A DNA stretch of 64,000 bases from Eubacteriales bacterium (GCA_045588145.1 JAZNDS010000038.1:882-64881); one strand, 5' to 3'; counted from the stretch's first letter, positions 3,042 to 62,723 are shown. Made by a program: numbers and translations. Notes: generated from the sequence alone by a model not told the origin.

Positions 3042-4121
3042 TTACTTTTTGGTGATATATCCCTCGCGATAAAGCAGCTCGGCGTTCAGGAGCGCGCCGC
3101 CCGCGGCACCGCGGAGCGTGTTGTGCGAAAGGCCAACGAACTTATAATCGAAGAGGGTGTCCTCGCGAAGCCGCCCGACCGAAACGCCCATGCCGCCGTA
3201 CAGATCACGGTCAAGCAGGGTCTGGGGGCGGTTGTCCTCCTCGAAATAGGTGATGAACTGCGCGGGCGCAGAGGGGAGGCCAAGCTCTTGGGGCTTGCCC
3301 TTGAAGCTACGCCAGGCTTCGAGAATAGCTTCCTTCTCGGGCTTCTTCTCAAAGGATACGAAGACGGCGGCCATGTGTCCGTCGATAACCGGTACGCGGA
3401 TGCACTGGGTGGTGATGATGGGCGACTCGGCCTTTACGATCACGCCCCCTTCGACCTTACCCCAGATGCGAAGCGGGTCTTGCTCGCTCTTTTCCTCCTC
3501 GCCGCCGATGTAGGGAATGACGTTGCCGACCATTTCGGGCCATTCGTTGAAGGTCTTGCCGGCGCCGCTGATCGCCTGGTAGGTGGTGGCGACGATCTTG
3601 GTGGGCTTATAGGCCAAAAGAGGCGTCAGGGCGGGGACGTAGCTCTGGATCGAGCAGTTGGGCTTGACCGCGATAAAGCCGCGGGTGGTGCCGAGGCGCT
3701 TCTTCTGGTATTCGATGACCGAGAGGTGGCTGTCGTTGATCTCGGGGATCATCATCGGGACGTCGGGCGTCCAACGGTTGGCGGAGTTATTCGAAACGAC
3801 CGGCAGCTCGGCCTTGGCGAGCCGCTCCTCAAGCAGCACGACCTCGCTCTTCGGCAGGTTGACGGCGCAGAAAACAAAATCACAAAGGTCGGCGATCGTC
3901 TTGGTGTCCTCGGACGAGATGACCACCATATCCTCCACCGACTTGGGCATCGGCGCGGTAAGCTTCCAGCGCGCGCCGACCGCCTCACGGTAGGTGCGCC
4001 CCGCGCTTCTTTCGCTGGCGATCAGGGCCGAGATCTCAAAATACGGATGCTCCGCCAGCAGGGTGACAAAGCGTTGGCCGACCATACCGGTGGCGCCAAC
4101 GATACCAACCTTCAATTTCAT
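3042..4121 (-). CDS. asd: Aspartate-semialdehyde dehydrogenase
   Basis: MKLKVGIVGATGMVGQ Rossmann N-terminus and a KPNCSIQ active-site Cys region. Start trimmed to ATG 4121, which has an AGGAGG RBS. The listed ORF start at 4193 lies upstream of the promoter -10. Confidence 0.92.
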   Translation of the reverse strand: MKLKVGIVGATGMVGQRFVTLLAEHPYFEISALIASERSAGRTYREAVGARWKLTAPMPKSVEDMVVISSEDTKTIADLCDFVFCAVNLPKSEVVLLEERLAKAELPVVSNNSANRWTPDVPMMIPEINDSHLSVIEYQKKRLGTTRGFIAVKPNCSIQSYVPALTPLLAYKPTKIVATTYQAISGAGKTFNEWPEMVGNVIPYIGGEEEKSEQDPLRIWGKVEGGVIVKAESPIITTQCIRVPVIDGHMAAVFVSFEKKPEKEAILEAWRSFKGKPQELGLPSAPAQFITYFEEDNRPQTLLDRDLYGGMGVSVGRLREDTLFDYKFVGLSHNTLRGAAGGALLNAELLYREGYITKK

Positions 4122-4164
4122 CACAAATCCTCCTGTATACAGAAAATATCTTTTACAATATCGC

Positions 4165-4193
4165 ATTATAGCACGAAGGGGCGTTTTTGTCAA
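4165..4193 (-). promoter_or_regulatory. Consensus sigma-A promoter for asd
   Basis: Minus strand reads TTGACA-N17-TATAAT exactly, with TGc giving an extended -10. Confidence 0.7.
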
Positions 4194-4367
4194 TCAAAAG
4201 CCGCCCTTTTTGCAAAAAACCCCTTTTCAAAACACAAATATACAGATATCATACCCTATTCTTTTGAACAAGTCACGCTTTTTTCCAAATAAACCTTTTG
4301 TTTTTCCAAATAGATTTGTTTATTTGGAAATCCAAAAACAGAAGCGACCGTGTTTTACCAACCGCTT

Positions 4368-6745: not shown

Positions 6746-8320
6746 TTATTCTTCGACCGAAGCGGCCTTTCTTTCCTCAAGCTCGGCGTTCATTTCGCCA
6801 AGCGTTTTCTTATCGAGGTTGTAGATCACGGCAATGCCGATGAACTGCAAAACGGCGCTGAAGAGGTAAAGGGCGGCGACCAGCCAGCACATGTTGTGCG
6901 CGGTCGTCATGCTCTGACCGATGGTGCCGTATTTGGCCTCGTAGCCGAGCCAGCCCATGATCAGCAGAACAGCCGAGGGACCAACGCCCTGCGCCAGCTT
7001 ACGGAAGAAGGAATGCAGCGAATAGACGGTGCCCTCCTCGCGGGTGCCGAACTTCCATTCGTTGTAGTCGATCGCATCCCCCATCATCGCCCAGGAAACG
7101 CAGGTGTAAACACCCATGCCGATGCCGAAGGCAACAAGGCCGAGGATAAAGACGACAAGCGCCACCGTGGTGTTCCCGATCAGGGGGAAGATCAGCATAA
7201 TAACGCCGCCCGCGATCGAGACCAGCGTACCGACGACCGAGGCCTCCTTTTTGCCGTACTTTTCCACGATCTTCGTGATAAAGGGCATAAAGAGGAACAT
7301 GGGAAGGAAGCCGATGACCTGCACGACACCCGAAAGAGAGGCCATATTAAAGTAGGTCGCAAACATGATAGTCGAGGCGGTGGTAGCGGCGTTCATGCCG
7401 AGGAACATACCCATGGCGGCGAGCGTCGCGCCGACGGCGGGGCGGTTCTTCATAAACTTGCCAAAGGCCTTGATGATGTTGAACTTTTCGGTCTTCTCCT
7501 GGGTCTTTACGGTATTTTCGTCCACACGGACCGTGATGTTTTTCAGCATAAAGAGGAAGGCGAGGAACCCGATAACGCCCATAATAAGCGCCGCGAGGAA
7601 CACACGCTCGCCAAGCAGGATCTCCAGACCCTTACCGGTCTGCGGGTTCAATACCGCCTCCCCGATCTCATAGGGGCGGGAGGGGTTGCCGGGCGTTGCG
7701 GGCGTGACCGTAAACTGATCGGGGGTAACACCCTCGGGCAGAACGATCTGATCGAGGAAGTTGGTGTTTCCCTCCCAGGTCACCTTGCGCCAGATCAGCA
7801 TCGGCAGAATGACGTTGGGAAGAATGTTACCGACCATCGAGCCGATCGAGCGCCAGGTCGAAAGCTGGGCACGCTCACCGGGATCGTCGGAAACGATCGA
7901 GAGCATCGAGCCGTAGGGAACGTTGGCGATGGTGTAGAAGGCATCCCAGACGATATACCCGACGATGAAGAGGATCGCCTTTAAGACGACGGGGGCATTC
8001 GGGAAGGGGAGGAAGACGGCGGCGCCGCCGACCAACAGCCCACAGGCCCCGATAAAGATATAGGTCTTGAATTTTCCGTGCTTATAGGATCTTCTGTCGT
8101 TGTCGATGAGTGTACCGATCAGGGGATCGTTTACGGCGTCCCAGATCTGGACCACGAGAAGCAGGGCCGAAAGAAGCCCGGTCTCCAGCATCATGTAGAC
8201 CAGCCAGAAGGTCTGTACGGTGGCCTTCAGCGCAAAGCTCATGTTGCAGCCAAGGTCACCGGCGGCATACGCCAGCTTATCGCGCATACCAAAGGGTCTT
8301 TTTGCCTTTTGATTTTCCAT
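6746..8320 (-). CDS. GPH-family glycoside-pentoside-hexuronide:cation symporter (MFS)
   Basis: N-terminus RDKLAYAAGDLGCNMSF and a 12-TM profile. Lies directly upstream of GH2 on the same strand. Confidence 0.88.
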   Translation of the reverse strand: MENQKAKRPFGMRDKLAYAAGDLGCNMSFALKATVQTFWLVYMMLETGLLSALLLVVQIWDAVNDPLIGTLIDNDRRSYKHGKFKTYIFIGACGLLVGGAAVFLPFPNAPVVLKAILFIVGYIVWDAFYTIANVPYGSMLSIVSDDPGERAQLSTWRSIGSMVGNILPNVILPMLIWRKVTWEGNTNFLDQIVLPEGVTPDQFTVTPATPGNPSRPYEIGEAVLNPQTGKGLEILLGERVFLAALIMGVIGFLAFLFMLKNITVRVDENTVKTQEKTEKFNIIKAFGKFMKNRPAVGATLAAMGMFLGMNAATTASTIMFATYFNMASLSGVVQVIGFLPMFLFMPFITKIVEKYGKKEASVVGTLVSIAGGVIMLIFPLIGNTTVALVVFILGLVAFGIGMGVYTCVSWAMMGDAIDYNEWKFGTREEGTVYSLHSFFRKLAQGVGPSAVLLIMGWLGYEAKYGTIGQSMTTAHNMCWLVAALYLFSAVLQFIGIAVIYNLDKKTLGEMNAELEERKAASVEE

Positions 8321-33138: not shown

Positions 33139-33170
33139 AAAAGAGCAGAACCGCGGTTCTGCTCTTTTTT
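33139..33170 (+). terminator. Rho-independent terminator
   Basis: AGAGCAGAACC-gc-GGTTCTGCTCT followed by TTTTTT. Confidence 0.8.
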
Positions 33171-53311: not shown

Positions 53312-53749
53312 ATGATGAAGTACAATGAAAAAATCGTTGCCCTGCGTAAGGCGAACGGCTTCACCCAGGAGGCTTTTGCCAAGGCGGTCGGTGTTACCCG
53401 CCAGGCGGTCTACAAATGGGAGGTAGGCGATTCTTATCCCGAGGCGGAAAAGCTGATCGCTATCAAGATGCTGTTCGGTATCAGCATCGACGACCTGCTT
53501 GACGACAACTACGAGGTGGTTGTAGAGCGTGTGAAGAAGCCGAGAAAGCGCCGCGCCGCCGCTGCCCCTGTTGAGGAAGCGCCCGCCGAATTCTCGGTGG
53601 TCGAGGCTACGGCAGAGGAAGAGGTCGCCGTTGAGGAGGCGATCGTTGCCGAGGCCCCCGTTGAGGCAGACGAATTCGACTTTACGGTTACCGCGGTCGG
53701 AAGCACCGAAAGAAGCGGGAACCTGTTTGACCTGTTCCGTAAGGGGTAA
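53312..53749 (+). CDS. XRE-family HTH regulator with Ala/Glu-rich low-complexity tail
   Basis: NGFTQEAFAKAVGVTRQAVYKWE helix-turn-helix. Confidence 0.8.
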   Translation: MMKYNEKIVALRKANGFTQEAFAKAVGVTRQAVYKWEVGDSYPEAEKLIAIKMLFGISIDDLLDDNYEVVVERVKKPRKRRAAAAPVEEAPAEFSVVEATAEEEVAVEEAIVAEAPVEADEFDFTVTAVGSTERSGNLFDLFRKG

Positions 53750-53953
53750 GACCGAAGGACCGATCGGGGGGAGCCTTCCCCCCGCTTCACCCCTTATCCG
53801 AAAAAGGAAAGGGACTTTTCGCCCTTTCCGCCATAAAGCCTTTCCCGCGCTGCGTGCGTGCGGGAATTTTCGCGCATACGGATTTTCTCTTTTGCATAAA
53901 ATTGGAAAAGAGGGGAATACTGTCCTATAAGACCCGAAAAAAGGAGAGATAGG

Positions 53954-54220
53954 ATGGTAAAGGGATACGAAAAAAGAATGGTGCGGCTGCAAAACGTCAG
54001 CAGCCGTTATTTTGAAGAGGTCTGCTTTATTTTGAGGGATGACCCCCGCTTGGGCACCCCCCGTGGGGCGGATCTTTTGGAGGAGGCGAACCGCATCCTC
54101 GACGAAAATCGGTGGGAGGCCCCGAAGGGGGGTCCCGAAAAGCGACGGCAGCCCCTTTCCTTTTTGCTGGGAATGGTTACCGCCGCCTCTCTTTTATTGC
54201 CGCTGATCTTCGTTTTGTAA
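53954..54220 (+). CDS. Small C-terminally membrane-anchored protein, unknown function
   Basis: AGGAGA RBS and a single C-terminal TM segment (LLGMVTAASLLLPLIFVL). Confidence 0.55.
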   Translation: MVKGYEKRMVRLQNVSSRYFEEVCFILRDDPRLGTPRGADLLEEANRILDENRWEAPKGGPEKRRQPLSFLLGMVTAASLLLPLIFVL

Positions 54221-56144: not shown

Positions 56145-56731
56145 TCGGCTATCGGTATATGGACGCCTCCCTTTATGGGGAGGAGGCCGATTTTCGCTGT
56201 GGGCTTTCGCTTCTTCCCGAGGCGCTTCACGCCTATGCCCTTGCCCCGAAGGAGAAAAACGCGCGCGCGCTTCGCTTGGCGGGCCTTGTGCTGCTGACCG
56301 TTCTTTATAACACCGAATGCGGCCACGCGCCGCTGCCCCCGATCGGCTTTTTTGAAAAGGGAAAGCCGTATTTTACCGAGGGCGAGCTTCATTTCAATAT
56401 TTCGCACAGCAAAGGGCTGGCCCTTTGCGCGCTTTCCGACCGCCCGATCGGGGTGGATATCGAGCCGATCAAGCAAGAATTTACCGAGAAGGAGGAGGGC
56501 ATCGCCCGCCGCTTTTTCACCGAGGGTGAGCGCCGCCTTTTGACTGCCGCCCCCGATAAGGGGGAGGCCTTCACCAAGATCTGGGTGCGGAAGGAAGCCC
56601 TCGCGAAGCAGAGCGGAGCGGGGGCGGCCGCCTTCTCCTCGACCGATACGACGGCGGCCCTTTTTTCGCACGAGGAGATCGTGACCGATAACGAAGGGGT
56701 GCGCTATTTCCTCGCGATTGCGGACAAATAA
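56141..56731 (+). CDS. Sfp-type 4'-phosphopantetheinyl transferase
   Basis: GKPYF...FNISHS...GVDIE...WVRKEALAK motifs. Confidence 0.88.
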   Translation: MIGYRYMDASLYGEEADFRCGLSLLPEALHAYALAPKEKNARALRLAGLVLLTVLYNTECGHAPLPPIGFFEKGKPYFTEGELHFNISHSKGLALCALSDRPIGVDIEPIKQEFTEKEEGIARRFFTEGERRLLTAAPDKGEAFTKIWVRKEALAKQSGAGAAAFSSTDTTAALFSHEEIVTDNEGVRYFLAIADK

Positions 56732-56796
56732 GCCAATAATGTAAAAGAAACTATATAAAAAGAGCAGAACCAAGGTTCTGCTCTTTTTGTGCTCGC
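56649..56796 (+). repeat. Left 148-bp direct repeat (PPTase last 27 codons, spacer and terminator)
   Basis: Aligns with 59805..59952 with 5 mismatches and no gaps. Confidence 0.9.
56757..56790. terminator. Terminator (PPTase on +, TasA-like gene on -)
   Basis: AGAGCAGAAC-caag-GTTCTGCTCT followed by TTTTT, with an A-run upstream. Confidence 0.8.
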
Positions 56797-56807
56797 ATGG
56801 AATAAGC

Positions 56808-58703
56808 TTACTTATTTGCGTTATATTTAACAGTAACGCCGTCATGTGCAGGGTTGCCGTAAACACCCTGTCCGCCGCCGTAAAGCTGGTCAAACGGACA
56901 AGGCACGAAGTGGTCTTCGCCTTCGTTATGAACGTGATTGTCGTCTACCACCTCATACCCTTCGGCATCGGTGGGGTGGCCGTATCTCGGATTAGAATAG
57001 GCAGAGTTGCTTATACCCGCCTGAACCCTTACGTAAGGCCAGCTCTTGCCCGCAAATTCGCAATACGTATAATTTGCCCAATCACCGTAAAGAACAGTCA
57101 CGTTCTCACAGGAAAGCTGCGGCGCATCGGCAAATGTGGTTCCGTCGATGTTGACCGTTTTACCCGTGTTGCCGATAAGCATGCCCGCGCGGCGGTATGC
57201 ATGCCACTGATAGCTTGAGGTTATGTCGTTATAAGCGTCAATTCTGCATGCGACAACGCAATCCTTGAGTAAGATCTCCGCGCTTTCACTGACACCGCCG
57301 ATAACGCCGCCGATGGCGTTATCGAAGTCGCCCCACTGCGCGGCAATATTGGTAGATTCGTCTATAACGCAGTTGCTGTATACGTGGTTACCCGAAGCCC
57401 AACCGACGATACCGCCCGCATAATACTGATAATCGGCTACGTTCGCGTTCTTAACCGTGATGTTCTCAAAGTGGCAGTTGCCGGATGCAACCGCTGCGAT
57501 CGTTCCGCAGATGGCACTTTCTCCGGAGATATCGGCACCGTCTATCGTAAGATTTTTTATCGTTGCGTTCTCAATCGCGCCGAAGAGCCCAAGCCCGAGA
57601 TCCCCGTAGTAATAGCCGTTATCAAGAGCCCAGGTATTCTGACTGAGGTTGTAGATCGTATGACCGTTCCCGTCAAACGTACCCGTAAACGCCCTGTCGT
57701 GTCTGTACGAGCCTATGGGATCGAAGCAGTTGCCTTCGTTATAGAGGTTTACGTCCGCATCGAGGATAACGGTCTTCGGGCTTTCATCATCAAAAAAGAA
57801 GCTGTTAAGCTGATCTGCGGTTATCGTCGAACGAGCAGAAGACAGGTCGCTGTCTTCAACGCTGCCGTCTATCATTTTGGAAAAAGCGGCAAAGGCCTCT
57901 GCGGAAGCTATGTTGACCTCGGTCGCGTTCGGGTCTACCCATGAGAAGTCAAGCGTGCCGTCCCATGCGTCGGGAATCGTCGGAGCCTCGGGAAATTCGG
58001 AATTTATGTCGTAAATAAAACCGTCGCCGTCATTTTCATAGGACATCTGCGTTGCCAAAAGCGACACAGCGAAGTCTATGGACAGTCCGCCGTCAACGTT
58101 GAATTCGTTATCGTTTTCGGTAGGAATCCAGCAAAGACCGATTTCATACGTTATGGATTCACCGGGAAGAAGGAAGGCTTCAACCGTAAATCCATCACCG
58201 AAGGAAGGCATATTGGCAGGGTCATAAGCAGGAATGGCGGAGTCAATTTGCTGATTTTCAAGCGTTTCGTCCTCCATGACCGTATCGGTGCCGGTGTTTT
58301 TGTTGCGCGCGATAGCATAGACGGATAAAGCGTCTGCAAGCGTTTTGCCCGACGGAGTCTCGGTTGCGTTTGCGTAAATGATACTCAATTGATATTTAAG
58401 CGCAAGCATACCGTTATTGACTACCTCAAAGCGGCCGCCGGCAAAGGCGCCGGGCTCCCAAACAATGGGGTCACCGTTGATATCCATAAAGATTTTGGTA
58501 TCCTCGTTAACCTCTTCGGGGGTGCCGTTATAGGAGTTGGTATAAATCAAATCAACGTCCAAATCTCCCGACTGGATTTGGTTTATTCCGCTTGAAGAAG
58601 AATCGGTAAACCAAGCAAAGGTCGTGCCAACAAGCATAGTAAAGCAAACGGCGATTGCAATTACGCTGCTAAAAAGGGGGATATTCCTGTTTCTGAATTT
58701 CAT
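56808..58703 (-). CDS. Secreted TasA/camelysin-like (Peptidase_M73-like) N-domain fused to a GLUG/beta-helix-like C-terminal region
   Basis: SipW-class signal region LVGTTFAWFTDSS, then SGDLDVDL...WEPGAFAGGRFEVVNNGMLALKY...FAVSLLATQ (compare TasA GTLDL and FEATQ). The C-terminal half has repeats GLFGAIENATIKNLTI, AGGIVGW and IGGVIGG. Confidence 0.8.
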   Translation of the reverse strand: MKFRNRNIPLFSSVIAIAVCFTMLVGTTFAWFTDSSSSGINQIQSGDLDVDLIYTNSYNGTPEEVNEDTKIFMDINGDPIVWEPGAFAGGRFEVVNNGMLALKYQLSIIYANATETPSGKTLADALSVYAIARNKNTGTDTVMEDETLENQQIDSAIPAYDPANMPSFGDGFTVEAFLLPGESITYEIGLCWIPTENDNEFNVDGGLSIDFAVSLLATQMSYENDGDGFIYDINSEFPEAPTIPDAWDGTLDFSWVDPNATEVNIASAEAFAAFSKMIDGSVEDSDLSSARSTITADQLNSFFFDDESPKTVILDADVNLYNEGNCFDPIGSYRHDRAFTGTFDGNGHTIYNLSQNTWALDNGYYYGDLGLGLFGAIENATIKNLTIDGADISGESAICGTIAAVASGNCHFENITVKNANVADYQYYAGGIVGWASGNHVYSNCVIDESTNIAAQWGDFDNAIGGVIGGVSESAEILLKDCVVACRIDAYNDITSSYQWHAYRRAGMLIGNTGKTVNIDGTTFADAPQLSCENVTVLYGDWANYTYCEFAGKSWPYVRVQAGISNSAYSNPRYGHPTDAEGYEVVDDNHVHNEGEDHFVPCPFDQLYGGGQGVYGNPAHDGVTVKYNANK

Positions 58704-58767
58704 TTTTTTACCTCTTTTAAATATTTTTTGTTTTTTAATAATTTCTTGCTGATTTTGGCGATAATCC

Positions 58768-59346
58768 TTATTTGCCCAACGCTTTTCCGATCTGCATGCT
58801 GAAAAACATGAGCATCAACACGGTAGGGATCAAAATACTGATAAAGTAACCGCGCGGGGTCTTTAAAAACGCAAAAAGACTGCCAACGTCGGGTATTTTA
58901 AAGAGATACTTGCCCATAATGTTCTCGGGCTTAACCGGTGTCGTGTCGTTGACGCCCGTGTTTATTCCGTAGGTAACGAAGCCGATGATGTTTCCGTCAT
59001 GACCGTATCTTATTTCTCTTATCTTGTGCGTTACGGTTTTTCCGTAGCTATCGGGATTATAAGAAAAGAAGGTTATAACATCGCCTGCTTTAAGCGCGGT
59101 AGCATCTTCAACCCTTCTTATTATTATAAGGTCACCCGCATCGAAAAAGATCGGTTCGTTTTCGCTTGATGAAGATTGGCTCATAGAGTCGCTTGCCACG
59201 ATTAAGAGCTGAAACCCCAAAACCTCCCTGCTGTTCTTCTCTCCGCTTAAAGAGGCAAAAATCATGATCAGCGCCATAGCAACCGAGAAAAAGCAGCATA
59301 GCCAAGCAAAAAAGGATATTATTTGTTCAAAAAATGTTCTCTTCAA
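58768..59346 (-). CDS. Signal peptidase I, SipW (ER/archaeal) type
   Basis: N-terminal TM, catalytic SDSM motif, GDVITF, TVTHKI, and a C-terminal TM. TTG start with a GAAGGA RBS. Confidence 0.8.
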   Translation of the reverse strand: MKRTFFEQIISFFAWLCCFFSVAMALIMIFASLSGEKNSREVLGFQLLIVASDSMSQSSSSENEPIFFDAGDLIIIRRVEDATALKAGDVITFFSYNPDSYGKTVTHKIREIRYGHDGNIIGFVTYGINTGVNDTTPVKPENIMGKYLFKIPDVGSLFAFLKTPRGYFISILIPTVLMLMFFSMQIGKALGK

Positions 59347-59441
59347 CGTTTATTCCTTCTCAACCCCCTGCCAAAAGTAACAAGCAAAAAAAGCATGCAC
59401 GTTGAGTTACAAATTAACTCATAGCACAAATGATAGCACGA

Positions 59442-59473
59442 TTTTAACTAAAAGTCAACACGTTTAGTTAAAA
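59442..59473. promoter_or_regulatory. Candidate operator: 11-bp perfect inverted repeat overlapping the XRE promoter
   Basis: TTTTAACTAAA-N10-TTTAGTTAAAA. TATAAT at 59478-59483. A second inverted repeat GAGTTA-N5-TAACTC lies at 59404-59420. Confidence 0.5.
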
Positions 59474-59520
59474 CCGCTATAATATTGTTGTAATTGTTTA
59501 AAGGAAAAGAGTGATGCGGA

Positions 59521-59799
59521 ATGGATTTTGGTGAAAAGATACGAAATGCAAGAGAAGATATGGACTTATCCCAACGAGATATGGCGAGTCTTATTCCAAT
59601 GAATCAATCGAATTACTCTAAAATAGAGCGCAATGTTCAGGAGCCTAACCTTGAACAGCTTCGCCGCATTTGCCAAATACTCAACATAGATCCCCGCTAC
59701 CTTTTAAACCTCGGTGATTACGTATCTATTACCGAGGCCGATATGAAGCTTTTGAAGGAAACAAAAGCTTTTATTCAGGCGCATAAAAACGAAAAATAG
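59521..59799 (+). CDS. XRE-family HTH regulator with short helical C-terminal tail (SinR-like architecture)
   Basis: LSQRDMASLIPMNQSNYSKIERN helix-turn-helix. 92 aa. Divergent from the sipW and TasA-like genes. Confidence 0.8.
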   Translation: MDFGEKIRNAREDMDLSQRDMASLIPMNQSNYSKIERNVQEPNLEQLRRICQILNIDPRYLLNLGDYVSITEADMKLLKETKAFIQAHKNEK

Positions 59800-59804
59800 C
59801 AGAG

Positions 59805-59952
59805 CGACGGCGGCCCTTTTTTCGCACGAGGAGATTGTGACCGATAACGAAGGGATGCGCTATTTTCTCGCGATTGCGGATAAATAAGCCAATAATGTAA
59901 AAGAAACTATATAAAAAGAGCAGAACCAAGGTTCTGCTCTTTTTGTGTTCGC
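59805..59952 (+). repeat. Right 148-bp direct repeat (orphan copy of PPTase 3' end plus terminator)
   Basis: Same as 56649..56796 with 5 transitions, all toward A/T. Confidence 0.9.
59913..59946 (+). terminator. Duplicated terminator copy
   Basis: AGAGCAGAAC-caag-GTTCTGCTCT followed by TTTTT. Confidence 0.75.
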
Positions 59953-60039
59953 GCGCGGCTTCGCCGCCTTTTCGTAAGGGGGCGGCTTCCCCAAAGGGGC
60001 GCCGCGGGGCGGAAAAGAGGCAAAAATCGGCGGTCACCC

Positions 60040-60068
60040 TTGACAAATCGGCCCCTTTATTATATAAT
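60040..60068 (+). promoter_or_regulatory. Consensus sigma-A promoter for alaS
   Basis: TTGACA-N17-TATAAT exactly. The leader is about 50 nt and has no T-box motif. Confidence 0.65.
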
Positions 60069-60119
60069 CATTTAGAATAAATAAAGATATAATAGCCGAT
60101 AGGCTTTGGAGGAAAAAGG

Positions 60120-62723
60120 ATGAAATGGACGTCTCTTAACGATCTGCGCGAGGCCTTTCTTTCGTTTTTCGAAAGCAAGGGGCATTTGCGCCTTCCCAGC
60201 TTTTCGCTGGTCCCGCAGGGGGATAGATCCCTGCTTCTCATCAATTCGGGCATGGCGCCGATGAAGAAGTATTTTACGGGGGAGGTCACGCCCCCCTCGA
60301 CCCGTGTCGCCACCTGCCAGAAGTGCATCCGCACGCCTGACCTTGACCGTGTCGGCCACACCGCGCGCCACGGCACCTTCTTCGAGATGCTCGGCAACTT
60401 CTCCTTCGGCGACTACTTTAAGGAGGAGGCCATCCCCTTCGCGTGGGAATTCTTAACCGAATGCCTTGCGATCCCCGGCTCTCTTTTGTGGCCCTCGATC
60501 TACGAAAATGACGAGGAGGCCTATAAGATCTGGACCGAGAAGATCGGCGTCGATCCCAAGAAGGTCGTGCGCCTCGGCAAGGCCGATAACTTCTGGGAGC
60601 ATGGCGAAGGCCCCTGCGGTCCCTGCTCCGAGATCTATTTTGACCGCGGCGAAAAATACGGCTGCGGCTCGCCCGATTGCCGCCCGGGGTGCGATTGCGA
60701 CCGCTATATGGAGATCTGGAACAACGTATTCTCCCAGTTCAACAACGACGGCAAGGGCAATTATACCGAGCTTGCCCAGAAGAATATCGATACGGGCATG
60801 GGGCTTGAGCGTCTGGCCTGCGTTCTGCAGGGGGTCGACAACCTCTTTGAGGTCGACTCGGTGCGTAAGATCCTCGATTCGGTGTGCGCCGTTGCCGGGA
60901 AGACCTACGGCGTCGATAAGGAGGACGATATTTCGATCCGCGTGGTGACCGACCACGTTAGAAGCGCCACCTTTATGATCGCGGACGGGGTCATTCCCTC
61001 GAACGAGGGCAGGGGGTACGTTCTGCGCCGTATCCTTCGCCGCGCCGCCCGCCACGGCAAGCTGTTGGGCATTGACCGTATGTTCCTTTGCGAGATGTGC
61101 GAGGTCGCCATCGGCGAGAGCCGTGACGCCTATCCCGAGCTTTCGACCAAGCATGACTATATTTTGGCGGTCGTTGAAAAGGAAGAGGAGCGCTTCCACG
61201 CGACGCTTGACAGCGGCCTGCGTATGCTCTCCGAGATGATGGAGAAGGCCGAAGAAAAGGCGCTTTCGGGCGAGGACTGCTTTAAGCTGTACGATACCTA
61301 CGGCTTTCCCTTTGATCTGACGCGCGAGATCGCCGAGGAGCGAGGCTTCAGCACCGATGAGGAGGCCTTCCGCGCGCTGATGAACGAGCAGCGTGCCCGC
61401 GCCCGCGCCGCCCGCAACACGGCGGGGGGCTGGAGCGAATCCTCGAAAACCGCCCTTTCGGGCCTTCCGAAGACCGAATTCCTCGGCTATACCGAAAACG
61501 AGTGCGAGGCGAAGCTTCTCGCCATTCTGGTGGAGGGCGAAAGCGTTTCGGCCGTTTCCGAGGGAGAGGCGACCCTGATCTTTGACCGCACCGTCTTTTA
61601 CGGAGAGGGCGGCGGCCAGGTGGGCGACACCGGCCTTATCAAAAAGGGCGAGCTTTCCTTCCGTGTTTCGGATACCAAAAAGAGCGACGGCGTATACCTG
61701 CATGAGCTTAGCGATATTTCGGGGCTGATCGAGGTAGGGGACACGCTCTCGCTTTCGATCGACGAAGCACGCCGCGCGGCCATTCGCCGCAACCATTCCT
61801 CGGCGCACCTGTTGCAGGCCGCGCTCCGCTCGGTGCTTGGCACGCACGTTGAGCAGGCGGGCTCGTACGTCGATGAAAAGGAAATGCGCTTTGACTTTAC
61901 CCACTTCTCGGCCATGACGAAGGAAGAGATCGCCGCGGTCGAAGCGCTCGTGAACCGATATATTCTCGCGGCCGAGGAGGCCGAAACCGTGGAGACTGAC
62001 CCCGAAAGCGCGAAAAAGATGGGCGCTATGGCTCTCTTTAACGAGAAGTACGGGGACCGTGTCCGCGTGGTGAAGATCGGCAGCCACTCGGTCGAGCTTT
62101 GCGGCGGCACGCACGTGCATAACAGCGGCGCCATCGGCCTTTTCCGCATCCTGTCCGAAAGCTCGGTCGCGGCGGGGGTCCGCCGTATCACCGCCTTGAC
62201 CGGCGCGAACGTCCTTGCCTATCTTGATAAGAAGGAAGAGACCGTGGCGGCCGTCGCCAAGGAATTGAAGGCCAATAACGTATCCGATCTTCTCCATCGG
62301 GCCGAGGCTGTCAGCGCCGAGCTGAAGGAGACCCGCCGCCGCCTGGAGAGCGCCGAGGCGAAGCTTTCCGAGGCGAAGCTTTCCACGCTTCTTTCCGAGG
62401 CAAGGACGGTAGGCACCCTTCGCCTGCTTACGGCAAGGCTGGATATGAGCGCCGATGCCGCCCGCAGCCTTTGCGACGGCATCAAGGAAAAATACGCCGA
62501 TATGGTGGCGGTCTTTGCCGCCGTCAACGGCGATAAGCTCAATTTCGTTGCCTGCTGCGGCAAGGACGCTGTGAAGGCGGGCGCGCACGCGGGAAAGATC
62601 CTTTCCGCGGTCAGCGCGATCTGCGGCGGCAAGGGAGGCGGTCGGCCCGACAGCGCCATGAGCGGCGGCCGTGACCTTTCCAAAATAGAGGAAGCTCTGG
62701 CGGCAGTCGAGGGGCTTTTGTAA
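60120..62723 (+). CDS. alaS: Alanine--tRNA ligase
   Basis: RHGTFFEMLGNFSFGDYFK, the editing-domain HSSAHLL...CGGTHV Zn motif, and a C-terminal DHHA1-like GGKGGGRPD. Confidence 0.96.
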   Translation: MKWTSLNDLREAFLSFFESKGHLRLPSFSLVPQGDRSLLLINSGMAPMKKYFTGEVTPPSTRVATCQKCIRTPDLDRVGHTARHGTFFEMLGNFSFGDYFKEEAIPFAWEFLTECLAIPGSLLWPSIYENDEEAYKIWTEKIGVDPKKVVRLGKADNFWEHGEGPCGPCSEIYFDRGEKYGCGSPDCRPGCDCDRYMEIWNNVFSQFNNDGKGNYTELAQKNIDTGMGLERLACVLQGVDNLFEVDSVRKILDSVCAVAGKTYGVDKEDDISIRVVTDHVRSATFMIADGVIPSNEGRGYVLRRILRRAARHGKLLGIDRMFLCEMCEVAIGESRDAYPELSTKHDYILAVVEKEEERFHATLDSGLRMLSEMMEKAEEKALSGEDCFKLYDTYGFPFDLTREIAEERGFSTDEEAFRALMNEQRARARAARNTAGGWSESSKTALSGLPKTEFLGYTENECEAKLLAILVEGESVSAVSEGEATLIFDRTVFYGEGGGQVGDTGLIKKGELSFRVSDTKKSDGVYLHELSDISGLIEVGDTLSLSIDEARRAAIRRNHSSAHLLQAALRSVLGTHVEQAGSYVDEKEMRFDFTHFSAMTKEEIAAVEALVNRYILAAEEAETVETDPESAKKMGAMALFNEKYGDRVRVVKIGSHSVELCGGTHVHNSGAIGLFRILSESSVAAGVRRITALTGANVLAYLDKKEETVAAVAKELKANNVSDLLHRAEAVSAELKETRRRLESAEAKLSEAKLSTLLSEARTVGTLRLLTARLDMSADAARSLCDGIKEKYADMVAVFAAVNGDKLNFVACCGKDAVKAGAHAGKILSAVSAICGGKGGGRPDSAMSGGRDLSKIEEALAAVEGLL

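Follow-up and report, generated by a model that had tools for sequence, protein, structure and literature searches.

A mobile-looking three-gene cassette in a Eubacteriales bacterium pairs a SipW-type signal peptidase with a predicted TasA-like protein bearing a beta-helix domain

Introduction

To our knowledge, the chief protein scaffolds in biofilms of Bacillus and Clostridium perfringens are SipW-dependent fibres made of TasA or BsaA, which have been studied solely as small single-domain subunits. Here we describe a related locus in a stretch of 64,000 nucleotides (nt) from a Eubacteriales bacterium (GCA_045588145.1, JAZNDS010000038.1; hereafter the window), in which three genes located between positions 56808 and 59799 encode a SipW-type signal peptidase of 192 amino acids (aa), a secreted two-domain protein of 631 aa and an XRE-family regulator of 92 aa (Table 1). 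An earlier note on this DNA had read the trio as a minimal sipW, tasA-like and sinR-like module lying on an acquired cassette. We propose, with somewhat more belief than doubt, that the cassette is a self-regulated, portable export module for a SipW-processed, beta-helix-bearing decorated adhesive fibre.

The described systems closest to this locus differ from it in various ways. Like the tapA-sipW-tasA and sinI-sinR genes of B. subtilis, the window has an endoplasmic reticulum (ER)-type peptidase encoded beside a substrate with a SipW-class signal peptide and a predicted TasA-family beta-sandwich, and an XRE gene is adjacent; unlike them, it has no tapA, sipW precedes the substrate gene, the substrate carries an extra beta-helix of 387 aa, and the regulator lacks both the SinR oligomerisation tail and SinI. 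Moreover, sinR is convergent with tasA in B. subtilis, whereas the XRE gene of the window is divergent from sipW and shares a promoter region with it. The sipW-bsaABCRSD locus of C. perfringens, which encodes the BsaA pellicle fibre, also has sipW first and then a TasA-like secreted protein, and the BsaA family is widespread in Clostridia (PMC7395162, PMC11580942); however, BsaA is small and single-domain (~23 kDa), and its locus has the accessory proteins BsaB and BsaC. In B. cereus, sipW-tasA-calY encodes camelysin (PF12389, Peptidase_M73), which is SipW-linked and represents the Pfam family of the N-domain in most homologues of the window protein, but the fibre protein is again single-domain and the locus includes BC1280/CapP and sinI/sinR. 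The archaeal AbpA and AbpX, TasA-like donor-strand-complemented bundling pili or matrix proteins (PMC9245690, bioRxiv 10.64898/2026.01.04.697558), resemble the window protein, which is paired with an archaeal/ER-type peptidase, although they stem from a different domain of life and lack the beta-helix payload. In general, TasA and camelysin subunits are single-domain proteins of about 200-260 aa, in contrast to the 631 aa found here. We conclude that the module is one of the already known matrix or fibre operons that combine SipW with a TasA-family protein, and that three traits make it an uncharacterised variant, namely the beta-helix payload fused to the substrate, the control by an XRE regulator and the carriage on a minimal mobile cassette.

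Results

Gene order and its conservation

The three open reading frames (ORFs), with the XRE gene divergent from the other two, were recovered as the earlier note had described them. XRE and sipW are separated by a spacer of 174 nt, and the 631-aa gene lies directly downstream of sipW across a gap of 64 nt in which no minus-strand terminator-like site was found. The spacer and the gaps between the cassette genes contain no sinI-sized or tapA-like ORF, which agrees with the claim that equivalents of both are missing, and no Rfam family matched between 55.5 and 60.6 kb. The rest of the 64-kb window has no second TasA-like or SipW gene.

A survey of homologous gene neighbourhoods, as the earlier note had suggested, covered the 15 related loci in which SipW has an identity of 49% or more to the window peptidase. 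A divergent XRE gene directly upstream of sipW, followed by the gene for the big protein, was present in 13 of them, and because this order recurs so often the juxtaposition of the trio is not due to chance. XRE orthologues with 80-86% identity occupy the same position in the three nearest loci (L001, L002 and L003), and the big protein is usually the sole member of its family adjoining SipW in the 13 trio loci.

Table 1. Coordinates of the genes, protein domains, repeats and candidate regulatory sites of the cassette in the window.
Feature	Position	Strand	Basis or remark
Gene for the 631-aa secreted two-domain protein (substrate and payload)	56808..58703	-	ORF listing
SipW-cognate signal peptide, residues 1-30	58614..58703	-	TIGR04088
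Predicted TasA/camelysin-family beta-sandwich, residues ~31-240, including the putative N-terminal donor strand (~31-48)	57984..58613	-	fold match, PF12389
Predicted GLUG-type right-handed beta-helix, residues 245-631	56811..57971	-	domain model and Foldseek
Gene for the SipW-type signal peptidase, 192 aa, TTG start	58768..59346	-	ORF listing, TIGR02228
Gene for the XRE-family helix-turn-helix regulator, 92 aa	59521..59799	+	HTH_19, HTH_3
Candidate XRE operator, perfect inverted repeat TTTTAACTAAA-N10-TTTAGTTAAAA	59442..59473	.	conserved spacer block
Promoter-like site for sipW and the 631-aa gene, TTGACT-17-TATCAT, extended TG	59430..59458	-	consensus scan
Promoter-like site for the XRE gene, TCAACA-17-TATAAT	59455..59483	+	consensus scan
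Second, weaker inverted repeat, GAGTTA-N5-TAACTC, common TAACT half-site	59404..59420	.	kept in L002, partly in L001/L003
Left 148-nt direct repeat: true 3' end of the phosphopantetheinyl-transferase (PPTase) gene (stop 56729-56731) and terminator	56649..56796	.	
Right direct repeat: non-functional copy of the last 83 nt of the PPTase gene and hairpin 59913-59944	59805..59952	.	
Bidirectional terminator hairpin, perfect 15-bp arms, flanking A and T runs	56757..56788	.	serves PPTase (+) and 631-aa gene (-)

A signal peptidase of the SipW type

The 192-aa peptidase passed the cut-off of TIGR02228, the model for archaeal/ER-type signal peptidase I (70 bits against 51.85), and failed that of NF046067, the equivalog model of Bacillus SipW (82.4 bits against 190). 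A Pfam search gave no match, without even an S24/S26 (P-type signal peptidase, SPase) match at E<=10, no bacterial SPase I model of NCBIfam matched at E<=0.01, and a search against PDB sequences returned chance matches only. The alignment of 44 family members showed that S54, in the motif SDSM, is invariant and that H107, in the motif THKI, and D134 are nearly invariant. A Ser/His/Asp pattern is expected of SipW and Sec11-type enzymes, whereas P-type enzymes use a Ser-Lys dyad, and from the context of the two motifs we take S54, H107 and D134 to be the counterparts of Ser47, His87 and Asp106 of SipW. Two hydrophobic, presumably transmembrane, segments (residues 5-36 and 165-190) flank the catalytic domain. 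Its profile matches place the 192-aa protein among the ER/archaeal (SipW-type) signal peptidases I and apart from the general P-type SPases, and it is of the same type as Bacillus SipW yet not its orthologue. This supports the SipW-type identity put forward in the earlier note, and the outcome which that note had named as contrary to it, the grouping of the peptidase with general SPase I, is not what the profile scores gave.

In the public annotation the peptidase begins at an internal ATG, which yields a protein of 169 aa with a truncated first transmembrane segment. We prefer the TTG start at 59346, which is preceded by a GAAGGA ribosome-binding site, because the relatives of the peptidase align with the window copy from residue 1. 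Most of these relatives have an extra cytoplasmic C-terminal extension and reach up to 564 aa in total (L003), while the window peptidase ends directly after the second transmembrane segment without any extension. The extensions found elsewhere can be repetitive, with two tandem repeats of period 573 nt in L003 (3285-4979) and three of 474 nt in L007 (3496-4743), and these repeats matched no Pfam family.

A substrate with a TasA-like N-terminal domain

The 631-aa protein has more than 2,500 homologues, a figure that is a lower bound, the best of which is 90% identical, and none is named beyond 'hypothetical protein'; the members of this uncharacterised family come from gut Clostridia. Its N-terminus matched the SipW-cognate signal peptide model TIGR04088 above the cut-off (25.2 bits against 19, residues 16-48), in agreement with the proposal of the earlier note that this neighbour is the putative substrate of the peptidase, and one hydrophobic segment (residues 6-33) surrounds the signal peptide. 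By analogy with TasA, the peptidase is predicted to cut after T28-F29-A30 and before W31-F32-T33-D34; in the family alignments A30 is invariant and T28, W31, F32, T33 and D34 are nearly so.

An AlphaFold2 model of the whole protein, built on 93 homologues, had a predicted local distance difference test score (pLDDT) of 87.9. The top PDB fold match found for it by Foldseek was the TasA fibre (8aur_A; E 1e-4, prob 1.00, TMt 0.39), and the third was 3n6z, a Bacteroides 'putative IgA1 protease'. Furthermore, PF12389 was matched by 68 of 78 homologues (E<=1e-3), and a paralogue in L008 whose N-domain is 70% identical to that of the window scored above the Pfam cut-off (24.1 bits). A search of PDB sequences with the profile of the 631-aa family gave no match at E<=1. 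The N-domain is otherwise variable, and its family motifs are GTTFA/WFTD, SGxLDV, EPG and NxGxLAxK, the most conserved residues being A30, W31, F32, T33, D34, N41, I43, G46 and L48. Residues 27-40 were unstructured in the monomer model (pLDDT <50), and they span both the predicted cut and the equivalent of the TasA donor strand, which in TasA comprises residues 28-38 (PMC9674648). N41, E83 and K103, nearly invariant in the family, could be a counterpart of the isopeptide triad N35-E56-K74 of BsaA. The fold match and the family profiles together indicate that residues ~31-240 are TasA/camelysin-like. The description of the protein as TasA-like consequently holds for its N-terminal third, and it does not extend to residues 245-631, a predicted GLUG beta-helix that is absent from TasA.

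An exchangeable beta-helix payload

When modelled alone, residues 245-631 gave a pLDDT of 83 and a predicted template modelling score (pTM) of 0.86. Foldseek matched this domain to 3n6z (E 5.6e-5, prob 1.0, 328 columns) and to the N-domains of the M26 IgA1 proteases of Gemella and pneumococcus (7uvl, 7uvk and 6xja, prob 1.0), while the fold matches to pectate and fucoidan lyases and to pectin methylesterases were weak (prob 0.4-0.6). At the sequence level, Peptidase_M26_N reached 20-21 bits on the 631-aa protein, which is below threshold, and GLUG was likewise below threshold. The fold of the region is thus like that of the M26 N-domains, of BACOVA_03286 (3n6z) and of GLUG-motif proteins. Unlike the M26 IgA1 proteases, the window protein has no HExxH domain and its beta-helix is attached to a TasA-like domain. 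We ruled out an identity as an M26 IgA1-specific metalloprotease, given that the HExxH catalytic domain is absent and only the non-catalytic beta-helix is matched. An LPxTG motif was also looked for in the 631-aa protein and not found, and the beta-helix region matched no carbohydrate-active enzyme (CAZyme) or peptidase family.

The beta-helix is the best-conserved region of the 631-aa family, and many metagenome-assembled genomes (MAGs) of Clostridia have it, at 55-70% identity, joined to other N-termini. Conversely, L008 joins the window-like N-domain mentioned above to a BspA-type leucine-rich repeat (LRR), and L064 has a PF12389 N-domain with a different C-terminal region. From these swaps we therefore deduce an architecture that, as far as sequence comparison tells, is a common TasA-like handle with an exchangeable payload. 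In seven loci (L008, L012, L014, L031, L037, L064 and L072) two or three TasA-like paralogues with differing C-termini are encoded in one operon. A homologue of the beta-helix domain (57% identity) was also seen in L046, a sheep-colon MAG labelled Candidatus Methanomethylophilaceae archaeon, which is either a binning error or an inter-domain transfer.

Boundaries and mobility of the cassette

The cassette (56797-59804, ~3 kb) has a GC content of 46%, compared with 58-59% in its flanks. The two copies of the 148-nt direct repeat are 97% identical and enclose exactly the three cassette genes, the left one ending 11 nt from the stop of the big gene and the right one beginning 5 nt past the XRE stop. 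In the bovine-gut run X2, a 401-nt contig of depth 7 joins the 3' end of the PPTase gene to the alaS leader with a single repeat copy (contig 55-228 corresponding to window 56623-56796, and contig 81-401 to window 59805-60125), which represents an empty site, this site resting on that one Logan contig; a contig from run X3 spans the filled left junction. Neither the terminator-junction pattern nor the PPTase protein retrieved anything when metagenomes were scanned with them. The two repeat copies have five differences, all of them C/G to T/A in the right copy. Because these five changes are all GC-to-AT in the non-coding copy and the empty site has the left-copy allele at four of the five positions, decay of the redundant right copy fits better than an origin of the two alleles from donor and recipient.

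The closest relative, L002, is a Eubacteriales MAG with 83% nucleotide identity over 8 kb and has the order gyrA-RNase J-PPTase-big-SipW-XRE in common with the window. Its homology ends at the XRE stop codon, beyond which L002 has aroA, aroC and pheA and the window has alaS; the divergence between both is alike for the cassette and for the flanks (74-90% versus 80-89%). In L001 the trio is enclosed by another direct repeat, of 96 nt and 71% identity (4121-4216 and 7930-8025), to which Rfam gave sub-threshold chance matches only, and across the other loci the genes upstream of XRE vary (GAPDH, an rsmE-like gene, GroEL and others). The low GC content, the direct repeats, the end of the L002 homology and the empty site bear out the suggestion that the cassette was acquired, and the varied contexts add to those data in favour of a portable module.

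None of the three genes between the repeats encodes an integrase, recombinase or transposase. Collections of plasmids and phages contained no close relative and gave only fragments of 27-41% identity, the sole plasmid match being a 'GLUG motif-containing protein'; nothing therefore indicates that a known plasmid or phage carries the module. The present arrangement could have originated by an insertion for which homology in the PPTase gene provided the anchor and in which the XRE end was joined illegitimately, or the empty site could reflect a loss in the X2 strain through recombination between the repeat copies. A comparable arrangement was noticed in L002, where a DUF559 (restriction-endonuclease-like) gene (3324-3692) is flanked on both sides by a 75-nt direct repeat (87% identity) of a pheA-like 3' end, the whole covering 3078-3790; this insertion is similar to the cassette in being behind the 3' end of a gene and in having a long duplication, and it hints at a common insertion mechanism.

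The terminator hairpin included in the repeats (AAAAGAGCAGAACC-NN-GGTTCTGCTCTTTT) occurs three times in the window (56757-56788, 59913-59944 and 33139-33168), with none expected. It was also found in many unrelated bovine-gut contigs at a depth of 80-200, and it may be a dispersed terminator or repetitive extragenic palindrome (REP)-like element of this bacterial group.

The regulator and the divergent spacer

In Pfam the 92-aa regulator matched HTH_19 (48.9 bits) and HTH_3 (45.6 bits). Its best NCBIfam match was the RstR phage-repressor subfamily (47 bits, cut-off 80), and the SlrR model gave 16.8 bits against a cut-off of 250. The closest relatives among PDB sequences were 9sf2, the N-domain of ICEBs1 ImmR (7t8i), P22 C2 and C.AhdI; SinR (1b0n) ranked behind ImmR, P22 C2 and C.AhdI, with E=0.019 over residues 3-63, that is, the helix-turn-helix (HTH) only, and an XRE-type HTH is a generic feature common to thousands of regulators. 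The C-terminal tail of 26 aa is kept in the three nearest loci and had no match among PDB sequences or in Pfam beyond the HTH, and ten of the 13 related trios encode a regulator of 67-69 aa without any tail. The earlier note had called the regulator SinR-like from its size and its short helical tail, and this claim has to be abandoned, as SinR was reached through the HTH only, no SinR/SinI oligomerisation domain is present and most of the trios dispense with the tail. Its matches indicate a generic XRE repressor, not a SinR-like one. We also rejected a reading of the XRE gene as part of a toxin-antitoxin or phage-immunity system, as the gene is conserved together with the sipW operon and no ORF resembling a toxin is present.

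The spacer between the divergent genes contains a palindrome, the candidate operator with the half-site TAACTAAA, which is its only strongly conserved block in the window, L001, L002 and L003, the rest being poorly conserved. The -35 boxes of the two divergent promoter-like sites overlap each other and both lie within the palindrome, and the TATAAT of the site for XRE, which comes after the palindrome, is invariant in the same four loci. The weaker inverted repeat may be an auxiliary operator downstream of the -10 box of sipW. No RNA-seq run was found to contain the locus. From this layout we infer an autoregulated repressor that would also shut off the export operon. In this respect the regulator is like the small XRE repressors of mobile elements (ImmR, P22 C2, C.AhdI and RstR), which are its closest sequences, a palindrome over divergent promoters implying autoregulation; unlike them, it falls below the family cut-offs, has the 26-aa tail and is located beside an export operon and not beside lysogeny or restriction genes.

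Discussion

We propose that the 631-aa protein would be exported by Sec and held in the membrane through its signal peptide until the dedicated peptidase cuts it after Ala30, which would free an N-terminal strand (about W31-L48). This strand could then enter the beta-sandwich of the next subunit, in a donor-strand exchange as in TasA and BsaA, and give rise to a surface or matrix fibre in which each subunit shows a beta-helix of ~40 kDa able to bind a protein or glycan ligand. An XRE dimer on the palindrome would repress its own promoter and that of sipW until a relieving signal arrives, with no antirepressor of the SinI type, and the duplicated host terminator would be used at both ends of the cassette. 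The cassette would have entered, and could leave, the PPTase-alaS intergenic site by a recombination that leaves the 148-nt duplication and that does not depend on a recombinase of its own. Processing, polymerisation, ligand and regulation are all inferred here. In C. perfringens, SipW is required for both the secretion and the polymerisation of BsaA (PMC7395162), and the wide BsaA/TasA family is found in operons that also encode signal peptidases (PMC11580942). Moreover, C-terminal fusions are tolerated, as described for BsaA-FAST (PMC11580942) and for antigens displayed on TasA (PMC6258259).

Several observations weigh against this proposal. The C-terminus of TasA contributes to the subunit interface of the fibre (PMC9674648), and a C-terminal domain of 387 aa might sterically block a TasA-like packing. 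The cassette has neither a second TasA-like gene nor a TapA-like nucleator, and the beta-helix might be an enzyme instead of a binding domain. The window protein itself matched PF12389 at 17.1 bits, with a cut-off of 22.5, and over residues 13-52 only, and the TM-scores of the Foldseek matches were low (TMt 0.39-0.40), so that the fold assignments lean on probability and rank. Finally, the promoter and operator calls are consensus matches, with 6 promoter-like sites found against 4.6 expected in shuffled sequences.

Alternatively, the 631-aa protein could be a monomeric adhesin or enzyme, secreted or membrane-proximal, whose TasA-like domain is a mere stalk, or an export tag for recognition by the dedicated peptidase, and forms no fibre. 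The large and strongly conserved C-domain that dominates the protein, the absence of a nucleator or second subunit from the cassette and the position of the TasA C-terminus in the fibre interface (PMC9674648) are all compatible with this explanation; however, it is the putative donor-strand region and the TasA motifs that are best conserved within the variable N-domain, and BsaA and TasA still assemble when they carry C-terminal fusions (PMC11580942, PMC6258259), and we consider a monomer unlikely, although it deserves serious attention. The protein could instead be a minor tip, anchor or nucleator, analogous to TapA, on a fibre whose major TasA-like subunit is encoded elsewhere. Heteropolymers have been proposed for the TasA/BsaA family (PMC11580942), TasA accepts a strand from TapA (PMC9674648, PMC10151520), and the seven related loci with two or three TasA-like paralogues per operon would agree with such a division of tasks, but no other TasA-like or SipW gene is present in the 64-kb window and the big protein usually stands alone beside SipW in the 13 trio loci, which makes a minor subunit distinctly improbable to us.

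We regard as still a little harder to believe that the beta-helix is catalytic, for instance a polysaccharide lyase or hydrolase, and that what the module exports is an enzyme or a fibre displaying one. The ruminant-gut habitat and the weak lyase and methylesterase fold matches would suit an enzyme, as would the conservation of C486, D489, D493, R504 and H598 (invariant), of H590 and E596 (nearly invariant) and of H592 (invariant or nearly so depending on the alignment), but the sole high-probability matches are 3n6z and the non-catalytic beta-helices of the IgA1 proteases, and no CAZyme or peptidase family was matched. The explanation that we believe least is that mis-assembly of a metagenomic contig created both the direct repeat and the apparent cassette. 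The source is uncultured, the relatives are all MAGs and repeats near the k-mer length of an assembler are prone to mis-joins; nevertheless, the five differences between the copies imply that the assembler neither merged nor multiplied them, L002 independently has the junction between PPTase and the big gene, and the contigs of runs X3 and X2 cover the left junction and the empty site, respectively.

If the 631-aa family polymerises into the proposed fibre, nature already displays large functional domains on TasA-type fibres, as engineered TasA fusions do. The module would then likely serve adhesion in bacteria that are abundant in the ruminant gut but uncultured, such as Christensenellaceae. 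A cassette of three genes with its own repressor and a candidate operator is, furthermore, small enough for direct testing in a heterologous host. A wider and much more speculative view, which we rate as unlikely in its entirety, is that in ruminant-gut Clostridia the TasA-like domain is a universal, SipW-activated polymerisation handle, possibly with an N41-E83-K103 isopeptide lock as in BsaA, onto which interchangeable payloads (the GLUG beta-helix, BspA-type LRRs or other beta-helices) are placed to make modular display scaffolds for adhesins or enzymes, the unit spreading without a recombinase, as a 3-kb cassette that inserts after host terminators and leaves a long duplication of its target.

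Two further features of the window were noticed outside the cassette. Between gyrA and RNase J (53312-54220) there is a second XRE-family gene, encoding 145 aa with an acidic or low-complexity tail, together with an ORF of 88 aa; both have counterparts in L002 (84-86% nucleotide identity) and have no relation to the cassette. In addition, the GC content is lowered to 50-51% between 44000 and 49000, versus about 57%, and this may be another acquired region.

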